This document shows positions 2,655 to 20,788 of a stretch of DNA of 32,000 nt, piece after piece. A program made the translations under genes and the position numbers. The notes beneath the pieces were generated by a model that saw only the letters and a program-made list of their open reading frames with translations, was not told the origin of the DNA and ran no database searches. Every line of letters starts with the position of its first letter. The stretch's first letter is position 1. Source of the DNA: Nitrosospira multiformis ATCC 25196 (lineage in GTDB: Bacteria > Pseudomonadota > Gammaproteobacteria > Burkholderiales > Nitrosomonadaceae); assembly GCF_000196355.1 (NCBI RefSeq), contig NC_007614.1, positions 60,001-92,000 on the forward strand. The letters are read 5' to 3'.

Positions 2655-3260
2655 TTAAAAAGGTGGATACACTCCTGTATCCCCCTTTCGAGCTGGTTTT
2701 TGCGATTGTACAGCGGTGTGCACCACTCCAGCATCAGTTAGCCCGGTCTCGATCTGGTCAATTTGTGCTTGGAGACTGGTATTTTCGGCCATAAGATTAT
2801 TTATTTCTGTCATCCGTTTTGGCATCGCAGGTCCAACAATGGTCGGGTATTCCATTTCTTGTACCGCTTTCCGCAGGCCTGCCTTTAGCTGGTCGCCCAG
2901 CATCCAAAATAATGCTACTTCGAGGTCATATACAGTAGCTTCATGATGGTCGTGTTCGCATGCTGTCAGGATTTTAAGCCCCCCCACTTTCCCTCTGTCT
3001 CCGACATAGTTGCAACCCGCGTCTTTGCCGTGGCAAGGATTTTTAGTGACAAGCTTCACCGCTTCTGCCAACTTTTGCGGATAGCGGTCTGCAATCCGAT
3101 CCATACGGGCAGCAAGCAGATCCGCCAGTTCTTCGCGAGGCGGAGGGAGGTTTTTGAGTTCCTCGATCCGGAGCTTATTCTTCCCTATTGTTGCCCGCAT
3201 CTTTTGGCACTCGTTACGAGCGTCTTCCAAAGTGCTTTTTACTTTTAACCAATCAAACAT
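2655..3260 (-). CDS. hypothetical protein with heptad-like (coiled-coil-looking) N- and C-terminal segments
   Basis: 201-aa ORF with an AAAGGAA SD, 42 nt downstream of the S49 gene. No family recognised. Confidence 0.6.
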   Translation of the reverse strand: MFDWLKVKSTLEDARNECQKMRATIGKNKLRIEELKNLPPPREELADLLAARMDRIADRYPQKLAEAVKLVTKNPCHGKDAGCNYVGDRGKVGGLKILTACEHDHHEATVYDLEVALFWMLGDQLKAGLRKAVQEMEYPTIVGPAMPKRMTEINNLMAENTSLQAQIDQIETGLTDAGVVHTAVQSQKPARKGDTGVYPPF

Positions 3261-3302
3261 TATCGATATTCCTTTGTCTTTTCAGGTTTGTTTACCCACC
3301 GC

Positions 3303-4268
3303 TTACACGCGACGTAATATCTTGACGCTGCCTGCCGCAGCTGCGCGCGTGTAGGCCGTGAAGCCCTCGAGTGTCACGAATTCCTCACGAATCTGCGGAT
3401 CATTGCGCCACTGGGCAGCGCAGGATTCTTCCAGGGACATAGATATTTGCTCCTCCTTTTTCGTTGCCCTGGCTGCGCTGGGCATTGCGCCAGACGAAAC
3501 CAGGGTACTTTCAAACGTGCCAATGGCGTCAGCCAGTCCCGCCCTTACTGCCTCAACGCCAACCAATACCCCGCCTTGCCCGAAGTCGGAGTTGACCTTC
3601 ATTTCATTAACTCCGCGATACCGTGCAACCTTCGCGGTAAATACACTGGCAAGACTGTCGATTTCTTTCTGCAGGACCTGGAGCCCCTCAGGGGTCGCCG
3701 GATCAGGTCTTTTCTTGGGTGCATTGGAAGAAACGATCTGATGAAAAATGACTCCCTGCATTTGCTGGCGCGCCTTGTCATCAATGGCTGTGCCAACCAC
3801 CCCGATGCTGCCTACCAGAGCTGTATCGGAAATTGTGATGTGACTGGTAGCGGCTGCCAGCCAGTAAGCAGCGGAAGCTCCCATTCCGGAAACAAAAGAC
3901 TCTATTGGCTTGATGGATCGAGCCGAGAATATTTGGTCCGCCAGCGGAGATACTCCGGATACCACGCCTCCAGGCGAATCAATGTTCAATACGATCTTGT
4001 TAACGGACGAGTCAGCCAAGGCAGCGCTCAGGTCCTGCTGGATGGTTTCCACATCTGTGCCGCCAAAGAGCAGACTGAGGAAGCTTGCGCGTGGCGTGAT
4101 AGGGCCAGTGATATCGATAACTGCCACGCCGTCCTGCGAAACACTTTTGCGTTGGGATGCCGGAAACTTGAGGCCTGGACCGGCAGCGTGTGCGTTTCGG
4201 ATCAGGCTTTCAAAAGTTTCCTTGTGCAATGCCCAGGGGCGGCCAAAGAGTTCAGTATGAAGACTCAT
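3303..4268 (-). CDS. S49-family serine peptidase (SppA / phage prohead protease gpC-like) with a scaffold-like C-terminal tail
   Basis: The sequence NKIVLNIDSPGG...SGMGASAAYWLAAA is typical of the S49/ClpP-fold family. The C-terminal roughly 80 aa is non-protease. The ATGA start/stop overlaps orf291. Confidence 0.75.
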   Translation of the reverse strand: MSLHTELFGRPWALHKETFESLIRNAHAAGPGLKFPASQRKSVSQDGVAVIDITGPITPRASFLSLLFGGTDVETIQQDLSAALADSSVNKIVLNIDSPGGVVSGVSPLADQIFSARSIKPIESFVSGMGASAAYWLAAATSHITISDTALVGSIGVVGTAIDDKARQQMQGVIFHQIVSSNAPKKRPDPATPEGLQVLQKEIDSLASVFTAKVARYRGVNEMKVNSDFGQGGVLVGVEAVRAGLADAIGTFESTLVSSGAMPSAARATKKEEQISMSLEESCAAQWRNDPQIREEFVTLEGFTAYTRAAAAGSVKILRRV

Positions 4269-5140
4269 AAGCTTTTCGCATCCGTAGACATATGCAATCC
4301 GGCTGATCTAAGCGCGTTTTCGATCTGCTCCTGGCTGAGCACGTCAGTAATCAAAGGCGGCAGTTCACCTTTTTCATCATCGCAATCCATGGCTTGGCGA
4401 AGGATGCGGCCATGATAGTCACTAAGATCATGATCATGTCTTGCCTGGAGCTCTTCTGAGCTGCCCCAAGCGTGAAGTGTGAGAACAGCTAGTTTTCCCA
4501 AAATATCCATGTACGATTTTCCTATATGAGTTGAGGGATTGATCGCAGTAGTCGATCGAGGTTGATCGTACGTATCGGCATGGAGGTGCAACAAGATGGA
4601 AGAGGTGCATGAAGCTGCGGCATGTTCCTGCACTATCTTCCTCAGCTGTCGCCAGTCACGAGGCACCATGCCCCCACCGAACTTGAAGGCAAAGAACAAT
4701 GCACGCCGAAAAGGAGTCATATCTTCCGGCGGAAGCGTGCGCTCCTCCAGCTGAGGCCAGAAGACCTCCTGGAAGATGTCAATTTGCTTGCTCAATTCAA
4801 GCCGGCGCTTGTGATCGGTAGGTTCATCAATCAATTCAAACGCACGCACGAGCCAGGTATTCCGTGCTTCGAATCTATCAACAGTTCGCCAATTACGTTG
4901 AGCCGCTGAAGGCGCAAGATTCATCACTTCATCGAGCGTGCGCTTCCCATTCACGTATTCACGGAATTTGGCTCTAACCCACAGAAGAGTTTCCGCAGGA
5001 ACCAATTCGCTATCAGGTGCGGTAAGCGCACGGATGTGTTCCTCTATATCGGGTGGAAGTCCACACTGTCTACCTGGTGGGGTTTCACCTCCCGTTGCCA
5101 GTTGCCTCCAATGATTTGCTTCGATGTGTGACGCACTCAT
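4265..5140 (-). CDS. hypothetical protein (291 aa), translationally coupled to the S49 peptidase
   Basis: Long ORF with a 4-bp overlap with the downstream gene. No family recognised. Confidence 0.6.
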   Translation of the reverse strand: MSASHIEANHWRQLATGGETPPGRQCGLPPDIEEHIRALTAPDSELVPAETLLWVRAKFREYVNGKRTLDEVMNLAPSAAQRNWRTVDRFEARNTWLVRAFELIDEPTDHKRRLELSKQIDIFQEVFWPQLEERTLPPEDMTPFRRALFFAFKFGGGMVPRDWRQLRKIVQEHAAASCTSSILLHLHADTYDQPRSTTAINPSTHIGKSYMDILGKLAVLTLHAWGSSEELQARHDHDLSDYHGRILRQAMDCDDEKGELPPLITDVLSQEQIENALRSAGLHMSTDAKSL

Positions 5141-5157
5141 TGGTAAATCTCTCCAAT

Positions 5158-5198
5158 GACCACCCTATTGACCACATAGACCACTCCGAACCGACCAC
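5158..5198. repeat. four GACCAC hexamers (5158, 5170, 5179, 5193) in the 5' region of orf291
   Basis: Four same-orientation copies lie within 41 bp, starting 18 bp upstream of the orf291 start codon. This is a candidate regulator-binding array. Confidence 0.35.
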
Positions 5199-5330
5199 CC
5201 CATGAGTTCAAAGTCACTAGCGCTTTTTTGGGGTCGTTCGTGCCGCATCTAAAAAACCTCCTGGAAGGACCCGTGAATTCTGGCTGGCAACCCCGTCCAG
5301 TTCTGCCCATCCCACACATATACATACCTA

Positions 5331-5534
5331 GGGTGAAATAAGTGAAATAAGTGAAGAAAGGCGTGGTTATTGGGTTTGAGCCAGATTGGTAAAAGTGAAA
5401 TAAGTGAAAAAAGGGTGATTTATATATAAAGTGATTTATATTATTTATAGTTATTTCACCTTTTTTCACCCTTTTTTCACCGTTAATATTCCTTTGAATA
5501 CCGCATGAATAGGCTTTCTTCACTTATTTCACCC
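5331..5534. repeat. iteron-flanked putative origin of replication
   Basis: Five GTGAARWAA 9-mers lie on the plus strand (5333, 5342, 5351, 5395, 5404) and five inverted copies follow (5451, 5461, 5472, 5515, 5524). They flank an AT-rich core that contains 2x GTGATTTATAT (5415, 5431). The outermost iteron overlaps the helicase stop codon. Confidence 0.7.
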
Positions 5535-6923
5535 TTTCTTATAAGCGTAATATCTCAATGCCGGTCTCCCGCCTGAGGCGCTATCCTTGCGTTCCTCCGC
5601 CAGTGGAGGCGCAAGGTTGAGCAACACCTCAAGCGCATGCTTCACCTGCTTGATATGCTTGCGGTTCCAGTGATCCTGCAAGGCTGTGAGGGTGATGCCA
5701 GGATTGGAAGTGATTAAGGACAGCACCTCGGCAACGAAAGGATCAATGCCGCCTTCATCATCCTGACAGTTGAAGATGTAGGTGACGCTAGCGTGCCAGT
5801 ACTCCACCCAGGCAATCGCCGCCCAAAGATCGCATGGCTCGATCTCAAGTCTTCCATCCATTGCAGCAAAGATCATGGCGAGCATTCGCGCATACATCTC
5901 AGATCGCGCCAGCAGGCTCCCTCCTTTGCCGTCCCTGTCCCGGGTAAGGCGTGGGTACTGCTCTATCCACAACTCGCGTGCAGCATCGCTCAGACGAACT
6001 TCCCGGGTGTTGTTCCCGTGGAGGTCACCTCCTGTTGCTGCCATTACTGCATCAGCTACGCGCGCCGCCAGCAGGCTCAGTGTTTCTTCAGGTGTGGGCT
6101 CAGGCAGAGGCACCAGCTTAGGGCGATACACGTACAGCATCATGAATCGATTCAGCAGCCCGTTTGCCACCTCGTTATCCGTCGATTTTTCGCGCAGCTC
6201 ATGGCTGGTGATGTGGCCCAGGATAACGACATGAGGCCGCGTGGCCTTGGTCTGATTGGTCTTGGTAAGCGGCTCCATATCCCGGCCATCGAAGAGATTG
6301 CGTATGGTTGCCGACAGTGTGTTGTTGTCGCGGCGCAGCTGCGAGAGCGTGTTGTCCATTTCGCTTTCAATCACCAGCAGGCGCTTATCCGCCACGCCAG
6401 CATCGGCCCCTTTGCCGTTGTCGTCAGCCTCGCGCGGGTCCCGTATCGCCCATGCCACCCCTTCACCAGTGGAAAGACCGCCAGCGTGAATCCGCAGGCG
6501 GTCATTGTTTCCTTGTCGTTTTCTAAGGATTTCATCTGCGCGGCGGAATATCTCACGTACCGTGGTTTCCGCCGTGCCCTTTCTGGCCTTGCCGCTCTTT
6601 CCAACAATGATCTGGAAGGCGCGGCAGTGAATCGAAGCATCTCCGATCTTCTGGAAAATGGAGCGGCCAGTCATCGCACAGAAGAAGGCCAGGACGTTCG
6701 ACGCCACGGCCACCGGATGCGCTTCGCTGTTGGAGCATGCTGCTTCGACGAACTTATGAACAAGAGGGGGGAAACCATCCTCATGCATGCGCGGCGGCGC
6801 CAAGGGAGTGTGAGTTTCAACCAGTTGTGGCCCCGGCAGCTTGCTCGCGCTCGCCTTCGCTGCCACCTTATCGAGGGCAACAGCGCCGCGCTCAATGCTT
6901 TGGGTATCGTCACGAATCGCCAT
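5529..6923 (-). CDS. DUF3987 (YfjI-like) putative replicative helicase / replication initiator
   Basis: 464 aa with a P-loop-like GKSGKARKGTA. The N-terminal FPPLVHKFVEAA region is typical of DUF3987 proteins found next to primases in integrative elements. Confidence 0.65.
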   Translation of the reverse strand: MAIRDDTQSIERGAVALDKVAAKASASKLPGPQLVETHTPLAPPRMHEDGFPPLVHKFVEAACSNSEAHPVAVASNVLAFFCAMTGRSIFQKIGDASIHCRAFQIIVGKSGKARKGTAETTVREIFRRADEILRKRQGNNDRLRIHAGGLSTGEGVAWAIRDPREADDNGKGADAGVADKRLLVIESEMDNTLSQLRRDNNTLSATIRNLFDGRDMEPLTKTNQTKATRPHVVILGHITSHELREKSTDNEVANGLLNRFMMLYVYRPKLVPLPEPTPEETLSLLAARVADAVMAATGGDLHGNNTREVRLSDAARELWIEQYPRLTRDRDGKGGSLLARSEMYARMLAMIFAAMDGRLEIEPCDLWAAIAWVEYWHASVTYIFNCQDDEGGIDPFVAEVLSLITSNPGITLTALQDHWNRKHIKQVKHALEVLLNLAPPLAEERKDSASGGRPALRYYAYKKG

Positions 6924-7335
6924 TGCACACCTCGGTCGCCCTTTGCAATCGTGAAGCAGCCACCAGGAGGCGCTTTCTGTCTTCCTCTGAAAGCTCCACG
7001 CCTTTGGCTACATTCAGTGCCGCTATCGATACCAGGAGTGCTTCGAATGCCAGACAGCGCAAAATGTCGCTTGCATAAAATGGTTTCCGCTCTTTCTGGC
7101 CGCTGTAACCTTCCTGACGCTCTGGAAACAAATCTTCGAGGGAGAGTCCTACTGCCGCGAGAACATTGGAGGTTTCGCATCCCGCGAAGTCATGCAGGAG
7201 CACGCGCCCATCGTCCAGTTCTCTAATCGCGAGAGAGGGCCGTTTATCCCGATGAGCTGGGCAGCGTGCTATCCAGCGACCTCTCCCGGTTTGTTTCACT
7301 CCGTCCAGGCGGTTCAAAAGGGTAGAGGCGCTCAT
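6910..7335 (-). CDS. primase-type zinc-binding domain protein (no catalytic domain recognisable)
   Basis: The WIARCPAHRDKRPSLAIRELDDGRVLLHDFAGC motif (CPxH...H..xxGC) matches the N-terminus of phage and plasmid primases. The protein is only 141 aa. It overlaps both neighbouring genes. Confidence 0.55.
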   Translation of the reverse strand: MSASTLLNRLDGVKQTGRGRWIARCPAHRDKRPSLAIRELDDGRVLLHDFAGCETSNVLAAVGLSLEDLFPERQEGYSGQKERKPFYASDILRCLAFEALLVSIAALNVAKGVELSEEDRKRLLVAASRLQRATEVCNGDS

Positions 7336-7607
7336 GAGCCACCTGCCTTCTGCTGCTCAGCGTCATGCTCATCCAGCAGCGCGCTAGCCTTTTCGATTTG
7401 CTTTATCAGGTTTTGAAGCGTGTAGATAAAACCATATGCCTCCGGGGCGGATAACTCGAGCCTGCTCTCGAGCTCTGCTCTATTGGAGAGCGCTCCGCTC
7501 AGGAACTCAGCCACGTAGGTGGCCTCGCAGAGCATGTCCTGTGCTTCAATGAGTTTGTTGGTGGTAGACGCTTGAAGCGCTACTACTTGTGCGTTTTGCC
7601 TAGCCAT
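7332..7607 (-). CDS. hypothetical protein (91 aa)
   Basis: ORF overlapping both neighbours (operon coupling). No family recognised. Confidence 0.5.
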   Translation of the reverse strand: MARQNAQVVALQASTTNKLIEAQDMLCEATYVAEFLSGALSNRAELESRLELSAPEAYGFIYTLQNLIKQIEKASALLDEHDAEQQKAGGS

Positions 7608-8031
7608 GTTGCACCTCCTTTGAGGTCAACGTAGGAGCACTTTCAGAATCCCTGTCATAGGGCGTAGCTCCAGCTCGAAGTGCACGAAGTCCCACAATGG
7701 CAACGGCAGCCAGGGCTTTTGAGAACCCGCATTCAATCCCCCATCCGGTTGATTTCCAACCGACGTCATTAAAAACGTACTCCAGGGCTAAGCAGGCCTC
7801 GTATTCGTCAACTTCGGCGAGCGCGACAATTTCTGCGAAATATTGCAACCCGATATCAACACCCTCGTGCCAGTACCCTTCTGGATCGTGGGGGACACGC
7901 CAAATGCGCAGAAGATCGTGTTCATCCGGGGCCGCGAAAGAAAGGTCGCTGCGGGACCGGATTGATTTGGCAGGGAGAGGTTGAACAGCTTTGAGATGTG
8001 GCGCGGACGCACCCTTGAATGCCTTAGGCAT
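7600..8031 (-). CDS. hypothetical protein (143 aa); first gene of the replication operon
   Basis: I trimmed the ORF from the track start at 8271 to the ATG at 8031, which is preceded by AAGGAG (8044-8039). The upstream 80 codons span a terminator and hairpins. Confidence 0.55.
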   Translation of the reverse strand: MPKAFKGASAPHLKAVQPLPAKSIRSRSDLSFAAPDEHDLLRIWRVPHDPEGYWHEGVDIGLQYFAEIVALAEVDEYEACLALEYVFNDVGWKSTGWGIECGFSKALAAVAIVGLRALRAGATPYDRDSESAPTLTSKEVQHG

Positions 8032-8038
8032 AGCAAGA

Positions 8039-8127
8039 CTCCTTTGTAAGCGGTTGATGTTCTCCGCTTCCCCGACGCCAATCGGGTGGGCGGAATCGTG
8101 CGAGTTGGCGTACCGGACAAAGGAACC
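8039..8127 (-). promoter_or_regulatory. structured 5' leader with SD-proximal motif copy (D) and antisense copy (M)
   Basis: Read in the RNA sense, M is GGUUCCUUUGUCCGGUACGCCAACUCG (8127-8101). D is a hairpin CCCGA-UUGGCG-UCGGG (8086-8071), then a hairpin at 8069-8048, then ACAAAGGAG (8047-8039), which contains the SD. Confidence 0.5.
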
Positions 8128-8190
8128 GGCGAGCCCGAAGGCTCCCCACACGACCCGCCCGTAAAAAGGGCTTGCCGTACAACGGACGTA

Positions 8191-8216
8191 AAATAAAAAA
8201 ACCGCCAAGAGGCGGT
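8191..8216 (-). terminator. rho-independent terminator (conditional?)
   Basis: The minus-strand stem is ACCGCC-UCUU-GGCGGU (8216-8201), followed by U8 (8200-8193). An upstream AGGCGG (8227-8222) can pair with the same CCGCCU instead. Confidence 0.7.
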
Positions 8217-8269
8217 TGTGTCCGCCTTTGTACCGAGACGCCAATCTCGACCACTGAATTTGCAGTGGC
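8191..8269 (-). ncRNA. candidate ~78-nt terminated leader transcript / small RNA
   Basis: It lies between a sigma70-like promoter and an intrinsic terminator. It contains hairpins CCACUG-CAAAUU-CAGUGG (8268-8251) and CGAGA-UUGGCG-UCUCG (8249-8234), followed by ACAAAGG. Confidence 0.4.
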
Positions 8270-8275
8270 AAGCAA

Positions 8276-8318: not shown

Positions 8319-8552
8319 CTAATCACCATTGCCAGCACCTTTCAAGATGCGACGTTCTTCAGCCCGCTCATCCAAATGAGCCAACAAGGCTATTCCGACA
8401 ACAAGTACGGGATGCTTTTTGATTATTTCCTCTGGTGATTCCCGTAGGCCAAGCTCGCCAGCTATGACCTGTGCTGCCTCCCAAAGCTGGTTGCTGGCAT
8501 ACTCAAGACCATCAGCCCGCAGCTTGTTGTAATCGATCTCAGGGCCGCTCAT
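8319..8552 (-). CDS. hypothetical protein (77 aa)
   Basis: ORF with an ATGA overlap with alpA. No family recognised. Confidence 0.5.
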   Translation of the reverse strand: MSGPEIDYNKLRADGLEYASNQLWEAAQVIAGELGLRESPEEIIKKHPVLVVGIALLAHLDERAEERRILKGAGNGD

Positions 8553-8803
8553 TGTGCTGTCCCTTGCAGCGAAGCCAGTACTTTTCTGAGTTTGCCAACG
8601 TTCCAGAATGTCATCCTGCCCAGCTTGGTGGGCTGCGGGAGAGTGCCGTCATTCACGCGCCGCCAGACCGTGGCATCGGAGCAGTTGAGAAGCCCCTTTA
8701 AAACTGGCTGGCGAACGTTGGCAGAATCGGGGAGTGAATCGAAGTGCTTGAGGGCATCAGGAATAACGTCTTCCTGCTTTACCCTTTTGCTCTGTTGAGG
8801 CAT
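8549..8803 (-). CDS. alpA: AlpA-family transcriptional regulator / excisionase-type HTH
   Basis: 84 aa. The segment LLNCSDATVWRRVNDGTLPQPTKLGRMTFWNVGKL matches the AlpA/MerR-type phage regulator pattern. Confidence 0.8.
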   Translation of the reverse strand: MPQQSKRVKQEDVIPDALKHFDSLPDSANVRQPVLKGLLNCSDATVWRRVNDGTLPQPTKLGRMTFWNVGKLRKVLASLQGTAQ

Positions 8804-8915: not shown

Positions 8916-9539
8916 TTATGCGCCTTTGAAGGGAATTCTTGTTGCTGCTTCTCTCAGGTATGCGAGTACCGTTTCCTCACTGATTTTAATGCCAACTATT
9001 TCAAGATCCCGCTTGATCACCCCGGGTACGGCACTCTTCTTTGCTTCGGGATCGTACTTATACTTTTTTACTGCTATCCCAAGCACTATTTTTAACAAGC
9101 TCGTTCTCGCACTGTCTGGAAGATTATCTTGCTGGCCTGTATCGTTTACCGTAAATATTGACAAAAGCTTGCGTTCTTCCTCCGAAATGCATTCCACATA
9201 GCTTTTTATGAAATGAGGTAAATCAGCTTCCAGAACGGCAAGTCTTTCTTTCATCGATTCCCGTAATCCTTCCTCTTCAGTATGTTGAATTTTCCAAGCA
9301 GCAAACCCACATAATCCTAACTTCCACAGCACACTTGCAGCCCTGCGCTGCCTGGTGGTCATGTTTATGTGCTCGGGTTCAGAGGACAGGTTCAATTTCT
9401 TGCCAATCTTGCAGTCAATTTCGCTGATGGTCACTTTATTGGTGTTGTATAAATTTGGCGGTATAAAATCAGCCAGATCTCGTCGCGCCATTTCTCGCAC
9501 TTCCAACATATCCCAACTTTTCTTATCCCAGCTGCTCAT
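8916..9539 (-). CDS. hypothetical protein (207 aa), AT-rich cargo or regulator
   Basis: Long ORF between int and alpA. It looks AT-richer than its neighbours by eye. No family recognised. Confidence 0.55.
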   Translation of the reverse strand: MSSWDKKSWDMLEVREMARRDLADFIPPNLYNTNKVTISEIDCKIGKKLNLSSEPEHINMTTRQRRAASVLWKLGLCGFAAWKIQHTEEEGLRESMKERLAVLEADLPHFIKSYVECISEEERKLLSIFTVNDTGQQDNLPDSARTSLLKIVLGIAVKKYKYDPEAKKSAVPGVIKRDLEIVGIKISEETVLAYLREAATRIPFKGA

Positions 9540-9639
9540 TTCCCACTTCCTTCCAAGCGTATCCCTTCAAATTGGTTGCCACCCCAGGCGGTGAAGGTTT
9601 CCGTTTTTCTCCTGGCCTGGATAGGGGTGGCTTAACAGT

Positions 9640-10902
9640 TTATTGTTTTGTTGCTACGGCACGCCTGATCGGCACAACCTTATCAGCCTCGCCCCGCTCG
9701 ATCTGGAGCAACAGTCCCGCCCAGGCCTCCAGTGCCGCCTTGCGTTCTTCAAAGTAGTCGTGCCGGTTATAGATGCCCTCGATCCCCTTGATCTTGTGAT
9801 TCAGGCAACGCTCGGCAATGTGAGGGGCAACGCCCAGGGCTTCGAAATGCGTACGCGCAGTACGGCGTAGATCATGGATAGTGAAGGGTTCCAGGCCGTG
9901 CTTGATCTTTGCCAGAGCCACGCTCAGCGTGCTTTCCGCAATATGTGGAATCATCCGATCCTGCATCTTGCGAGCCGGCAACACCCACTTGCTAACACCC
10001 GCCAGGCGCTGCAACTCGCGCAGCCACTCTACTGCAATCGGAGGCAAGGGTATGTCAATGGCAGATTCGGTTTTCGTGCGTTCGGCAGGCAGATACCAGA
10101 CAGCTTTATCCAGGTCGAACTCAGACCACCTGGCGCCGATCAGCTCACCCTTTCGCACCGCAAGCAGTAATAGCAGTTTGATGCTCAAGCCGTTCTCCAC
10201 ACTGAAACCAGGTGCTTGCCGCATTGCTTCAAAGAGCGTGACCAGCTCCTCGCTGGTCAACCAGCGCGTCCGGCTTTTCTCCTTGCCGCCAGCGTCACCT
10301 GGATCAAATGCAGCCGCGGGATTGTATTCGATGATGTGGCGCTTGATAGCATAGTTGAACATGCGCTTAAGCCAGCGCAGTGTATCGTTCGCTATGGAAG
10401 GCGCACCCCGTTTCATTACAGCCTTGAGCACATCATCAATATGCCTGGGCTTTACATCCTCAACCTTCAAGCTGCCAATCGCGGGCTTGATGTCTTTCTC
10501 GATCCTGGATCGTACGATGTTTGGGTGCTTCCATCGCCCTGCAATCATCCTTTCAAAATATTCGTCGGCCAGCTGCGCCACGGTGTACGCATTCTTCTCC
10601 GCTTCTATCCTGGCAATGGCTTCGCCCTTGCGCTGCTGTTTTTCTCCGGCCACGTCGTAGCCCAAAGCAACGCGAGCGGACAGCTTCTTGGCTTCATCCC
10701 TGGCATCCGCCAGGGATAGCGTACCGTAACTGCCAATATTCATAACGCGGCGCTTGCCACAAAAACGGTATCTGAAACGCCAGATAGGAATGGCATAACC
10801 TTCACGAAAACTCAGATATAGGCCACCACCTACAGCACGGCCTTCAAACCGTTCGCCCGCCTTGATCCAGTTGCGGATCTCCATGTCTGTTAGCTTAGCC
10901 AT
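9640..10902 (-). CDS. int: tyrosine-type site-specific integrase (P4/CP4-57 type, DUF4102 N-terminus)
   Basis: 420 aa. The N-terminal LTDMEIRNWIKAGERF...GGLYLSF is typical of the family, and the C-terminal catalytic pattern HDLRRTART...LNH...GIYNRHDY is present. Confidence 0.92.
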   Translation of the reverse strand: MAKLTDMEIRNWIKAGERFEGRAVGGGLYLSFREGYAIPIWRFRYRFCGKRRVMNIGSYGTLSLADARDEAKKLSARVALGYDVAGEKQQRKGEAIARIEAEKNAYTVAQLADEYFERMIAGRWKHPNIVRSRIEKDIKPAIGSLKVEDVKPRHIDDVLKAVMKRGAPSIANDTLRWLKRMFNYAIKRHIIEYNPAAAFDPGDAGGKEKSRTRWLTSEELVTLFEAMRQAPGFSVENGLSIKLLLLLAVRKGELIGARWSEFDLDKAVWYLPAERTKTESAIDIPLPPIAVEWLRELQRLAGVSKWVLPARKMQDRMIPHIAESTLSVALAKIKHGLEPFTIHDLRRTARTHFEALGVAPHIAERCLNHKIKGIEGIYNRHDYFEERKAALEAWAGLLLQIERGEADKVVPIRRAVATKQ

Positions 10903-10935: not shown

Positions 10936-11035
10936 GGGGTACCCGGCATATCACGTAAACCCGCCTGTATCGGGCTTCTCGCTGGGTACACGTAAAAACC
11001 TGATAATTTCAGCGTATGTACCCTTATATGTACCC
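10936..11035 (+). repeat. four KGTACMC motifs (10938 GGTACCC, 10985 GGTACAC, 11017 TGTACCC, 11029 TGTACCC); candidate arm-type sites at the int-proximal end
   Basis: All are in the same orientation as the two left-end copies. CACGTAAA is also repeated (10952, 10989). Confidence 0.4.
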
Positions 11036-11154: not shown

Positions 11155-12048
11155 TCACTCAATGTTTTGCACCTGTTCCCGCATTTGCTCGATCAAAACC
11201 TTGAGTTCCACCGAAATTTTCGACACTTCCGCATCCACCGATTTCGCGCCGATGGTATTGGCTTCCCGGTTGAGTTCCTGCATCAAAAAATCCAGTCGCT
11301 TGCCGATCGCTCCGCCTTTCTCCAGAACGCGCTCCACTTCATCGAAGTGTGCCTGAAGGCGCGACAGTTCCTCATCCACATCGATCTTGCTGGCGAACAA
11401 TGTCAATTCCTGGCGGATGCGCTCGTCGTCGCAATTTATCATGGCTTCACGCAGTCTAGCCTTGAGCTTTTCCTGAAATGTCGCCAGCAAGGCAGGAATG
11501 GATGGACTGACTTCGGATGCGAGCCGGCGCATATTGCCCAGGCGGTCCAGCAAAATAGCTTTAAGTTTTGCACCTTCGCGCCCACGGGCAGCGGCCAGTT
11601 CGTCCACTGCCGCATGCATCAAGTCCATGCATGGCCCGAAAAAGTTCTCGGCGGAGGAGGATTCCGTCGCCAATATTCCGGGCCAACGAAGGACATCTGC
11701 CACCGCCAGGCCCCGAGCCTCGGGCAATACCGCCCTGACGGTACGGTCCAGTTCCAGCAGTTTTTGCAACAAATCCGCATTAATATGCTGCAAATCTTCC
11801 GCAGGTGTAATCCGGGAAAAACTGACGCGGCATTCGATTTTTCCACGCTTGAGGCGGGTGGTCAGAAATTCGCGCATTGCGGTTTCCAGCATGCGGAATT
11901 CGTCGGGAAGGCGAAACTGGATATCGAGATAACGGCTGTTGACCGAGCGAAGCTCGAGATTCAACGATCCTTGCGGGAGTTCCTTCGCGACTACGGCATA
12001 GCCGGTCATGCTGTAGATCTTGGCTAACTTGTCCACTCGATCATCCAC
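11155..12048 (-). CDS. yicC: YicC/YloC-family stress-induced protein (endoribonuclease)
   Basis: It has the SMTGYA N-terminus and the C-terminal LIEQMREQVQNIE typical of YicC. The start is uncertain (GTG at 12048 or ATG at 12009). Confidence 0.88.
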   Translation of the reverse strand: MDDRVDKLAKIYSMTGYAVVAKELPQGSLNLELRSVNSRYLDIQFRLPDEFRMLETAMREFLTTRLKRGKIECRVSFSRITPAEDLQHINADLLQKLLELDRTVRAVLPEARGLAVADVLRWPGILATESSSAENFFGPCMDLMHAAVDELAAARGREGAKLKAILLDRLGNMRRLASEVSPSIPALLATFQEKLKARLREAMINCDDERIRQELTLFASKIDVDEELSRLQAHFDEVERVLEKGGAIGKRLDFLMQELNREANTIGAKSVDAEVSKISVELKVLIEQMREQVQNIE

Positions 12049-20714: not shown

Positions 20715-20788
20715 GCGGGTGTAGCTCAATGGCAGAGCAGAAGCTTCCCAAGCTTACGACGAGGGTTCGATTCCCTTCACCCGCTCCA
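20715..20788 (+). tRNA. tRNA-Gly (anticodon CCC)
   Basis: 74 nt with acceptor stem GCGGGTG/CACCCGC, D arm GCTC/GAGC, anticodon loop TTCCCAA, T arm GAGGG-TTCGATT-CCCTT and an encoded CCA. It is close to E. coli glyU as I recall it. Position 27:43 is a G-A mismatch. Confidence 0.92.

Follow-up and report, generated by a model that had tools for sequence, protein, structure and literature searches.

Within a 32 kb stretch of Nitrosospira multiformis ATCC 25196 DNA (the window), we analyzed the region at positions 5331–5534, a repeat array that abuts the stop codon of a gene encoding a DUF3987-family helicase. The array is very probably the vegetative replication origin of a ~10 kb integrated N. 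multiformis island of the satellite type. It consists of short repeats (iterons) arranged in two opposed arms around an AT-rich centre. A preliminary description of this DNA had compared the region with the origins of staphylococcal pathogenicity islands (SaPIs) and other phage-inducible chromosomal islands (PICIs), a comparison now supported by the presence of all the sequence-level elements and by comparative data from relatives.

The iteron consensus GTGAARWAA matches ten times in the window, and all ten matches fall within 5333–5532, five on each strand. The chance level is 1.07 matches per window, and none of 100 dinucleotide-preserving shuffles reached ten, the maximum being four. No second iteron cluster was found in the window, where a search allowing one mismatch yielded only isolated extra sites. 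On the plus strand, a distal outer triplet at 9-bp spacing (5333–5359, with GTGAAATAA at 5333 and 5342 and GTGAAGAAA at 5351) is followed by a 35-bp distal spacer (5360–5394) and a distal inner pair (5395–5412, with GTGAAATAA at 5395 and GTGAAAAAA at 5404). Beyond the AT-rich centre (5413–5450), the minus strand carries a proximal inner triplet (5451–5480; copies at 5451–5459, 5461–5469 and 5472–5480, with start-to-start spacings of 10 and 11 bp), a 34-bp proximal spacer (5481–5514) and a proximal outer pair (5515–5532; copies at 5515–5523 and 5524–5532, reading GTGAAGAAA and GTGAAATAA on the gene strand). The second copy of this last pair holds the helicase stop codon, the TGA at 5529–5531 (minus strand) being the TGA within the GTGA core of iteron 5524–5532. 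The outermost blocks form an inverted repeat, in which 5342–5360 and 5514–5532 are 100% complementary over 19 nt and a longer pairing of 5330–5351 with 5514–5535 reaches 91% over 22 nt. As expected of a dyad-symmetric region, a single strand of the array folds far better than its shuffles (z = −7.5). An Rfam search of the origin region returned sub-threshold chance matches only.

The AT-rich centre presumably serves as the unwinding element. Within it, GTGATTTATAT occurs twice (5415–5425 and 5431–5441); these variant GTGA elements have a different tail and bring the total of GTGA-core elements to 12. The lowest GC content in the window lies here (0.167 over 60 bp from 5390), as does its least stable 40-bp duplex, at 5417, with a ΔG of −37.4 kcal/mol, compared with −43.4 kcal/mol for the next lowest and a window mean of −58.3 kcal/mol. 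No DnaA box with two or fewer mismatches was detected in 5300–5540; the best candidate, ATAACCACG in the distal spacer, fits only six of nine positions and was rejected. Re-reading of the sequence thus bore out the preliminary description in its ten 9-mers, their two inverted arms and all their positions, in the two GTGATTTATAT copies of the AT-rich core at 5415 and 5431 and in the overlap of the last iteron with the TGA of the DUF3987 gene; the outer inverted repeat, which it had put at about 21 bp, corresponds to the 19-nt and 22-nt pairings given above.

The same architecture recurs in relatives of the island. We gathered 63 related loci from genomes, metagenomes and viral contigs, oriented each on its helicase stop codon and scored an array as at least six copies of an 8-mer (one mismatch or fewer) that lie at the helicase stop within ~330 bp and form two opposed arms. 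Such an array was present in 34 of 51 distinct relatives (40–93% protein identity), compared with 0 of 42 control regions drawn from within the same helicase genes. Several of the remaining relatives have more degenerate copies, and counting of 4-nt cores still revealed their opposed arms. From 93% down to ~40% protein identity, a common layout follows the helicase stop at the same position as in N. multiformis: at the stop, two or three iterons and, past a spacer of ~32–44 bp, three more; then an AT-rich stretch; then, in inverted orientation, two or three iterons and, past a second spacer, a last three. The spacers also carry conserved motifs, CATGCGG in the proximal one (5501–5507 on the gene strand in N. 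multiformis, kept in many relatives) and AAACCC...CCACGCC in the distal one. The N. multiformis distal spacer, which contains CAAACCCAATAACCACGCC on the gene strand and is kept in related lineages, is a weak mirror of the proximal spacer. In several lineages (L013, L014, L028 and L046) the two spacers are mirror images, so that the whole ~200 bp forms an imperfect palindrome. The spacers may bind a host factor or offer the helicase a second surface to contact.

The presumed initiator is encoded by the adjoining gene (5529–6923, minus strand), whose 464-aa product matches Pfam DUF3987 (DUF3987/YfjI family, E = 7e-14) and is 100% identical to an N. multiformis ATCC 25196 protein (P0001) named 'putative DNA primase/helicase'. 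In an alignment of 23 homologues, the Walker-type, P-loop-like GKSGKARKGT and the acidic LLVIESE are invariant; the N. multiformis open reading frame (ORF) is full length and retains all family-invariant residues. An AlphaFold2 model of the protein (pLDDT, the per-residue model confidence, 71) found its best PDB fold matches in MCM2-7 and archaeal MCM (E = 5e-6). Assignment of the model's C-terminus by DSSP gave helices at 395–406, 412–418 and 424–436 and strands at 442–447 and 455–460, the two strands forming a beta hairpin. This predicted winged-helix domain (residues ~393–464) is encoded at 5532–5747 (minus strand), and its predicted recognition helix, 424–436, is preceded by R421-K422-H423. 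The protein is therefore predicted to be an MCM-like AAA+ helicase with a C-terminal winged helix. DNA unwinding has been shown for another DUF3987 member, AgaPH, which carries both Walker motifs (A and B) and a small domain at its C-terminus (PMC11724360). At E ≤ 1e-10 the helicase has ~600 homologues. The family namesake, YfjI of E. coli K-12 (CP4-57), was tried as a comparison and proved uninformative because it shows neither BLASTP similarity to the N. multiformis helicase nor repeats downstream of its gene.

These features suggest how the origin might work. The winged-helix end of the island's DUF3987 protein would read the 9-bp GTGA-core iterons, and the opposed arms (two plus three and three plus two canonical sites, with two variant central sites) would flank the AT-rich centre with helicase assemblies. 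As in the mechanism proposed for SaPI Rep (PMC9371898), this centre would then melt and the helicase load itself without DnaA, so that replication would start there after induction and excision of the island. The site count alone would be compatible with one hexamer per arm and one site per winged helix.

Comparison of lineages points to a link between the iterons and the C-terminal domain (CTD) of the helicase. The iteron core is GTGA in N. multiformis and most close relatives (GTGAxxxAA), and GCGA, ACGA, ACGC, ACGG or G(G/T)AACTTAG in other lineages. Even between N. multiformis and L003, whose helicases are 93% identical, the origins differ by 16 substitutions, seven of which fall at iteron position 5 and are all A to G. 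This position accounts for 10 of 204 sites (binomial P = 5e-6 for seven of 16), and its enrichment in a single type of change indicates that the iteron copies changed in concert. Across full-length loci, helicase residue 422 tracks the first iteron base in 24 of 24 cases with no exception, Lys occurring with G at 17 loci and Asn with A at seven. Among all 459 columns of the helicase alignment, residue 422 was the sole perfect predictor of iteron base 1; the next-best columns are high-entropy, and several of them likewise lie in the CTD. In a neighbour-joining tree built from residues 40–385 only, residue 422 and iteron base 1 each change at least six times, at the same tips. In the model, the predicted recognition helix is capped at its start by the R-K-H turn, to which residue 422 belongs. 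Lysine usually prefers guanine and asparagine adenine.

Further contigs were fetched after this rule had been stated, and for three of them the outcome was predicted in advance. As predicted, L056 (protein P0049, Asn422) has ACGA iterons, L058 (P0111, Asn422) has ACGC iterons and L059 (P0059, Lys422), on the Pseudazoarcus pumilus chromosome, has G(T/C)GA iterons. L061 (P0092, Asn422), which was fetched to explore an unclassified motif with no stated prediction, has ACGA iterons and fits the rule. The contig encoding P0086 has no array and could not be scored.

On this basis we put forward, tentatively and as a proposal that is more doubtful than the origin itself, that a self-loading, MCM-like bacterial helicase would dock on the array as a double hexamer, the array acting as its template, and that residue 422 (Lys reading G, Asn reading A) would set origin specificity and repeated flips would create mutually orthogonal replicon groups among co-resident satellites. 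The site count behind the double hexamer is the 12 GTGA-core sites of the N. multiformis array and the clean arrangement of three plus three sites on either side of the AT-rich stretch in distant relatives, which would match the 12 winged-helix domains of two hexamers. If true, origin recognition would follow a simple natural code, and bacteria would offer a model of head-to-head loading by MCM-type helicases.

Several points weigh against the origin reading, which is computational, or against its extensions. A profile of the 23 homologues retrieved no PDB chain at E ≤ 1 except one spurious match, from a PDB copy not confirmed to include the published SaPI Rep structures (PMC9371898); as no solved structure is detectably similar to the helicase in sequence, its kinship with SaPI Rep extends to fold and architecture only. 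The iterons within one origin are heterogeneous at positions 5–7. Among the relatives, the whole 3.7 kb contig of L057 is free of an array, and the distal arm is missing from L063. A second recognition rule, relating His423 or Arg to iteron position 5 (His423 with GTGAA in N. multiformis, Arg with GTGAG in L001 and L003), was rejected, since other Arg423 lineages use GTGAA. The count of joint changes of residue 422 and iteron base 1 in the neighbour-joining tree overstates independence, because fewer than 200 bp separate the CTD codons from the iterons and recombination would move both together regardless of function. The repeated co-switches may thus be module swaps and not independent mutations; either way, the CTD and the iterons act as a single unit of specificity that can be separated from the ATPase body. 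The remaining adverse points concern the state of the island, and they would fit a relic, a more serious possibility than the alternatives below, that is, an array that is an origin by descent in a decaying island whose replication has been lost in this strain. An IS3-family insertion sequence (IS), a possible sign of decay, lies in the distal part of the island (881–2151). No Toprim or other primase catalytic domain was detected in the island's proteins, whereas relatives have a 272–277 aa Toprim protein or a Toprim-helicase fusion, and no capsid gene was detected in the island, unlike in relatives. In addition, no exact repeat of 11 bp or more that could serve as an attachment (att) core was found between the integrase-proximal end and the left 3.3 kb. 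We nevertheless consider a relic rather unlikely, since the helicase ORF is full length with every family-invariant residue, the ten iterons fit a tight consensus and the outer 19-nt repeat is perfectly complementary. Moreover, L001 and L003 keep the layout, including the type of 141-aa protein that the island encodes upstream of the helicase, and putative integrase arm-type sites are present at both island ends.

Other functions for the array fit these data less well than a replication origin does. Its repeats might be a transcriptional operator that binds a regulator of the downstream morphogenesis operon, either the helicase as an autorepressor or another island protein, with no replication start. 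The array does occupy a 390-bp gap ahead of the next operon and contains one weak sigma-70-like match, and plasmid initiators that bind iterons often autoregulate. An operator is nonetheless improbable: the array stands at the 3′ end of the helicase gene rather than at the promoter and surrounds the window's least stable DNA, two arms about an AT-rich centre are the layout of satellite origins that have been proven (PMC9371898, PMC6092414), and promoter-like matches are at chance level (one found, 0.9 expected). An array with both functions is conceivable. Equally, the position upstream of a head-morphogenesis module, represented by an S49 head maturation protease, could suit a site for packaging (pac/cos) or for partition, to which a small terminase or a centromere-binding protein would bind, and cosB, pac and parS sites typically comprise arrays of repeats. 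Against this very improbable assignment, the iteron sequence follows the CTD residue of the helicase and not the downstream genes, which differ even between lineages with 93% identical helicases; no ParA/ParB or TerS was detected in family scans of the window's proteins; and more plausible sites of this kind are a separate conserved element and, farther downstream, a cluster of GACCAC hexamers. The repeats could finally be the by-product of a real gene, the 128-aa ORF at 5137–5523 (minus strand), whose frame is open in the closest relatives L001 and L003 despite indels of 9 bp and 3 bp. That openness follows from the 9-bp periodicity of the repeats, as GTGAAATAA units at 9-bp spacing necessarily leave one of three frames free of stops, and the reverse units lack stops as well. 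The product would be repeat-derived and rich in Phe and Tyr; it has no family match and is missing from a collection of 15 billion proteins. GenBank annotates no such ORF between the consecutive entries ABB73367 and ABB73369, the numbering leaving no gene between the helicase gene and the 291-aa gene beyond the array, and only 16 of 50 relatives have an open frame across the origin, whereas the repeat architecture is kept. A coding origin of the repeats is therefore scarcely credible, in agreement with the preliminary description, which had dismissed this ORF as an artefact.

As a replication origin, the array is best compared with those of SaPIs (SaPIbov1, SaPI1 and SaPI5; Ubeda 2007, 2012, as summarised in PMC9371898), whose Rep or Pri-Rep proteins are self-loading helicases. 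In SaPIs and PICIs, iterons lie directly 3′ of rep as two opposed sets around an AT-rich centre, in 6–12 copies (PMC9371898; PMC6092414, Fig. 2), and the C-terminal winged helix of SaPI Rep recognises them (PMC9371898). The N. multiformis array shares with them its position directly 3′ of the gene for a helicase-initiator, its short iterons in two opposed sets around an AT-rich centre (five per strand plus two central variants, within the range of 6–12), the lack of a DnaA box, a specificity that varies between islands and, on the N. multiformis side by prediction, an AAA+ initiator of the MCM-like clade with a C-terminal winged helix. It differs from them in that its iterons are 9-bp units with a 4-bp core, compared with 5–6 nt in SaPIs, that a conserved spacer of ~35 bp divides each arm into outer and inner clusters, that one iteron overlaps the stop codon, and that the helicase belongs to DUF3987 and the host is a betaproteobacterial ammonia oxidiser. 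Among PICIs of Gram-negative bacteria, the rep-ori segment of the E. coli island EcCICFT073 has been shown to drive plasmid replication (PMC6092414). The N. multiformis island resembles the pri-rep-ori region of EcCICFT073 (PMC6092414) in its order of int, a candidate alpA, a candidate pri and rep, ori and then morphogenesis or interference genes, but its primase part is reduced to a zinc-ribbon protein and it has no DNA similarity to complete E. coli genomes. Capsid-forming PICIs (cf-PICIs) share the left module of int, regulator and primase-replicase with PICIs (PMC10085698). Like them (PMC10085698), relatives of the N. multiformis island carry genes for an HK97-type capsid or a protease-capsid past the origin, and the island itself encodes a head maturation protease. 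Of the capsid, portal, head-tail adaptor/connector and terminase genes that define them, however, none was detected in the window.

Further parallels are found in satellite phage P4 and in iteron plasmids. The alpha helicase of P4, reportedly from the work of Ziegelin and Lanka and of Yeo et al. in 2002, binds short repeated octamers through a C-terminal winged-helix origin-binding domain. P4 is an integrase-bearing satellite whose replication operon is preceded by a C4/CI-type RNA; its helicase, of another family, is fused to a primase, and its origin has two separated sites, ori and crr, with TGTTCACC repeats. The N. multiformis island likewise has an integrase, a predicted winged-helix initiator and C4 and isrK motifs, and differs in having a single iteron cluster and no P4-like gene set, psu, sid and delta homologues being undetected in family scans of the window's proteins. 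Iteron plasmid origins (RepA/Pi/TrfA) combine direct repeats of 17–22 bp with DnaA boxes and use a non-helicase Rep that needs DnaB/DnaC loading. Their short repeated initiator sites beside an AT-rich unwinding element recall the N. multiformis array, but the latter has 9-bp units in inverted arms, no DnaA box and an initiator that is itself a helicase, and so does not belong to the RepA type.

Iterons that flank an AT-rich site after rep are already established for SaPIs and E. coli PICIs, and the present origin extends this knowledge without changing it. Split arms with conserved spacers, the breadth of the family and the residue-422 rule are the additions to the known type, useful and unsurprising to a specialist. 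For the reference genome of a model ammonia oxidiser, the finding annotates a probably functional non-coding element, removes a spurious ORF and identifies the locus as a satellite-type mobile island with a probable replicon of its own. To our knowledge, such islands have hardly been described in nitrifiers. The comparative set provides natural pairs of initiator and origin, ~50 origins with one architecture and at least six iteron cores, two of which are separated by a one-residue predictor. This series could be used to study origin recognition by self-loading MCM-like helicases and to build orthogonal replicons.

The locus lies between the host genes trxC (14–454) and yicC (11155–12048). GGGTAC(A/C)C occurs seven times in the window (0.58 expected), with five of the seven copies at the island ends (699–718 and 10937–11035); these repeats are likely arm-type binding sites of the integrase and would put the island bounds at ~0.7 kb and 11.1 kb. 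Taken together with the gene and RNA content, the repeats at both ends identify the locus as an integrative, satellite-type island of ~10 kb. Its tyrosine integrase (9640–10902, minus strand) matches Pfam Arm-DNA-bind_3, Phage_int_M and Phage_integrase. The only tRNA gene in the window, tRNA-Gly (CCC) at 20715–20788, is far from the island, so that the insertion site is not a tRNA gene.

Between the integrase gene and a 207-aa ORF (8916–9539) lies an int-alpA RNA motif (9564–9631, minus strand; Rfam RF02996, 55.6 bits, above gathering), which is also present in L003 and L016. It is followed by an AlpA/excisionase-like 84-aa ORF (8549–8803, minus strand), whose matches are an excisionase/regulator PHROG (E = 8e-5) and, more weakly, HTH_17 (E = 0.036). 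The replication operon is headed by an isrK motif (8195–8269, minus strand; 63.4 bits) and a C4 antisense RNA motif (8082–8166, minus strand; 70 bits), both above the Rfam gathering threshold. The same RNA families as in the window are carried by L001, L003, L016 and L061. A 223-aa ORF (7600–8271, TTG start) overlaps isrK and C4; because of this overlap, its lack of a family match and its absence from the protein collection, its 5′ part is probably non-coding.

The stop codon of the next gene, which encodes the 141-aa protein (6910–7335, minus strand), overlaps the helicase start. This protein, named 'DNA primase' in UniRef, has a primase-type zinc-ribbon N-terminus, with a match to phrog_6088 (DNA primase) at E = 1e-16 over residues 4–80 and a weak CHC2 zinc-ribbon match at E = 0.03, and this N-terminus is the only primase signal in the island. 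The 223-aa and 141-aa ORFs were also considered as Toprim primases and rejected, as neither showed similarity to a relative's Toprim protein. The close relatives L001 and L003 share the N. multiformis layout with this type of 141-aa protein, while others have the Toprim protein or fusion mentioned above.

Downstream of the origin, three genes occupy 2655–5140 on the minus strand. Directly next to it is the gene for the 291-aa protein (Nmul_A0058), which has no family match and is shortened to 246 aa in RefSeq; the others encode the S49 head-maturation protease (3303–4268; phrog_53, E = 3e-69) and a 201-aa coiled-coil-like protein. The IS3-family element farther along (plus strand) comprises an HTH_Tnp_1 ORF (881–1306) and an rve ORF (1303–2151), and its insertion may have disrupted the island's morphogenesis module. 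A 448-aa ORF on the opposite strand (763–2109) is an antisense artefact. In relatives with 60–70% identical helicases, the genes immediately past the origin instead encode an HK97-type capsid or a ClpP-capsid fusion, and the downstream gene set of L003, despite its 93% identical helicase, differs from that of N. multiformis, indicating that downstream modules are exchanged at or near the origin.

Searches with the island returned no megablast match in 5,426 E. coli genomes. No close relatives were found among 50,697 phage records or 72,556 plasmids, each of which gave a single match, at ~25% and 24% identity, respectively. Within the set of relatives, the replication modules of two loci with a Toprim-helicase fusion are flanked by defence-type genes, SIR2_2/DUF4020 and TIR_2 in L060 and a DEAD/ResIII helicase, AAA and Peptidase_S8 in L062, which suggests that some family members carry anti-phage cargo.

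Further sites are conserved around the origin. About 60 bp beyond its distal end, the motif GGGTCCT(T/C)CC (5263–5272; GGAAGGACCC on the plus strand and GGGTCCTTCC on the gene strand) is kept in 14 relatives with quite different iterons. It is followed 15–25 nt later by CGGGTAATTCGAACC in eight of the 14, with a close variant in L058, and another class of relatives has GGGGGTCAAAA(C/G)TCAA in its place. A structured RNA at this element was rejected, as RNAalifold gave six pairs and no compensatory change; in view of this lack of covariation, the motif looks like a DNA-level site, possibly a promoter, a regulator site or a cos-like site. Upstream of the 291-aa gene, GACCAC (GTGGTC on the gene strand) occurs four times in 41 bp (5158–5198), and in L001 and L003 the corresponding place has five to seven copies of GTGG(T/C)C. 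Over the entire window the hexamer shows no enrichment (13 found, 11.3 expected), and its cluster here may be a binding array for a regulator or a terminase. In L044, nine tandem copies of an 18-bp unit, GGTCGACCAACACCTTGA, lie just beyond the origin, ~147–310 nt past the helicase stop. Directly adjoining the last iteron of the N. multiformis array is an alternating purine-pyrimidine tract (5313–5326; CACACATATACATA, or TATGTATATGTGTG on the gene strand), and a (GT)n-like tract is present at the same place in many relatives, including L001, L009, L010, L021, L047 and L056.

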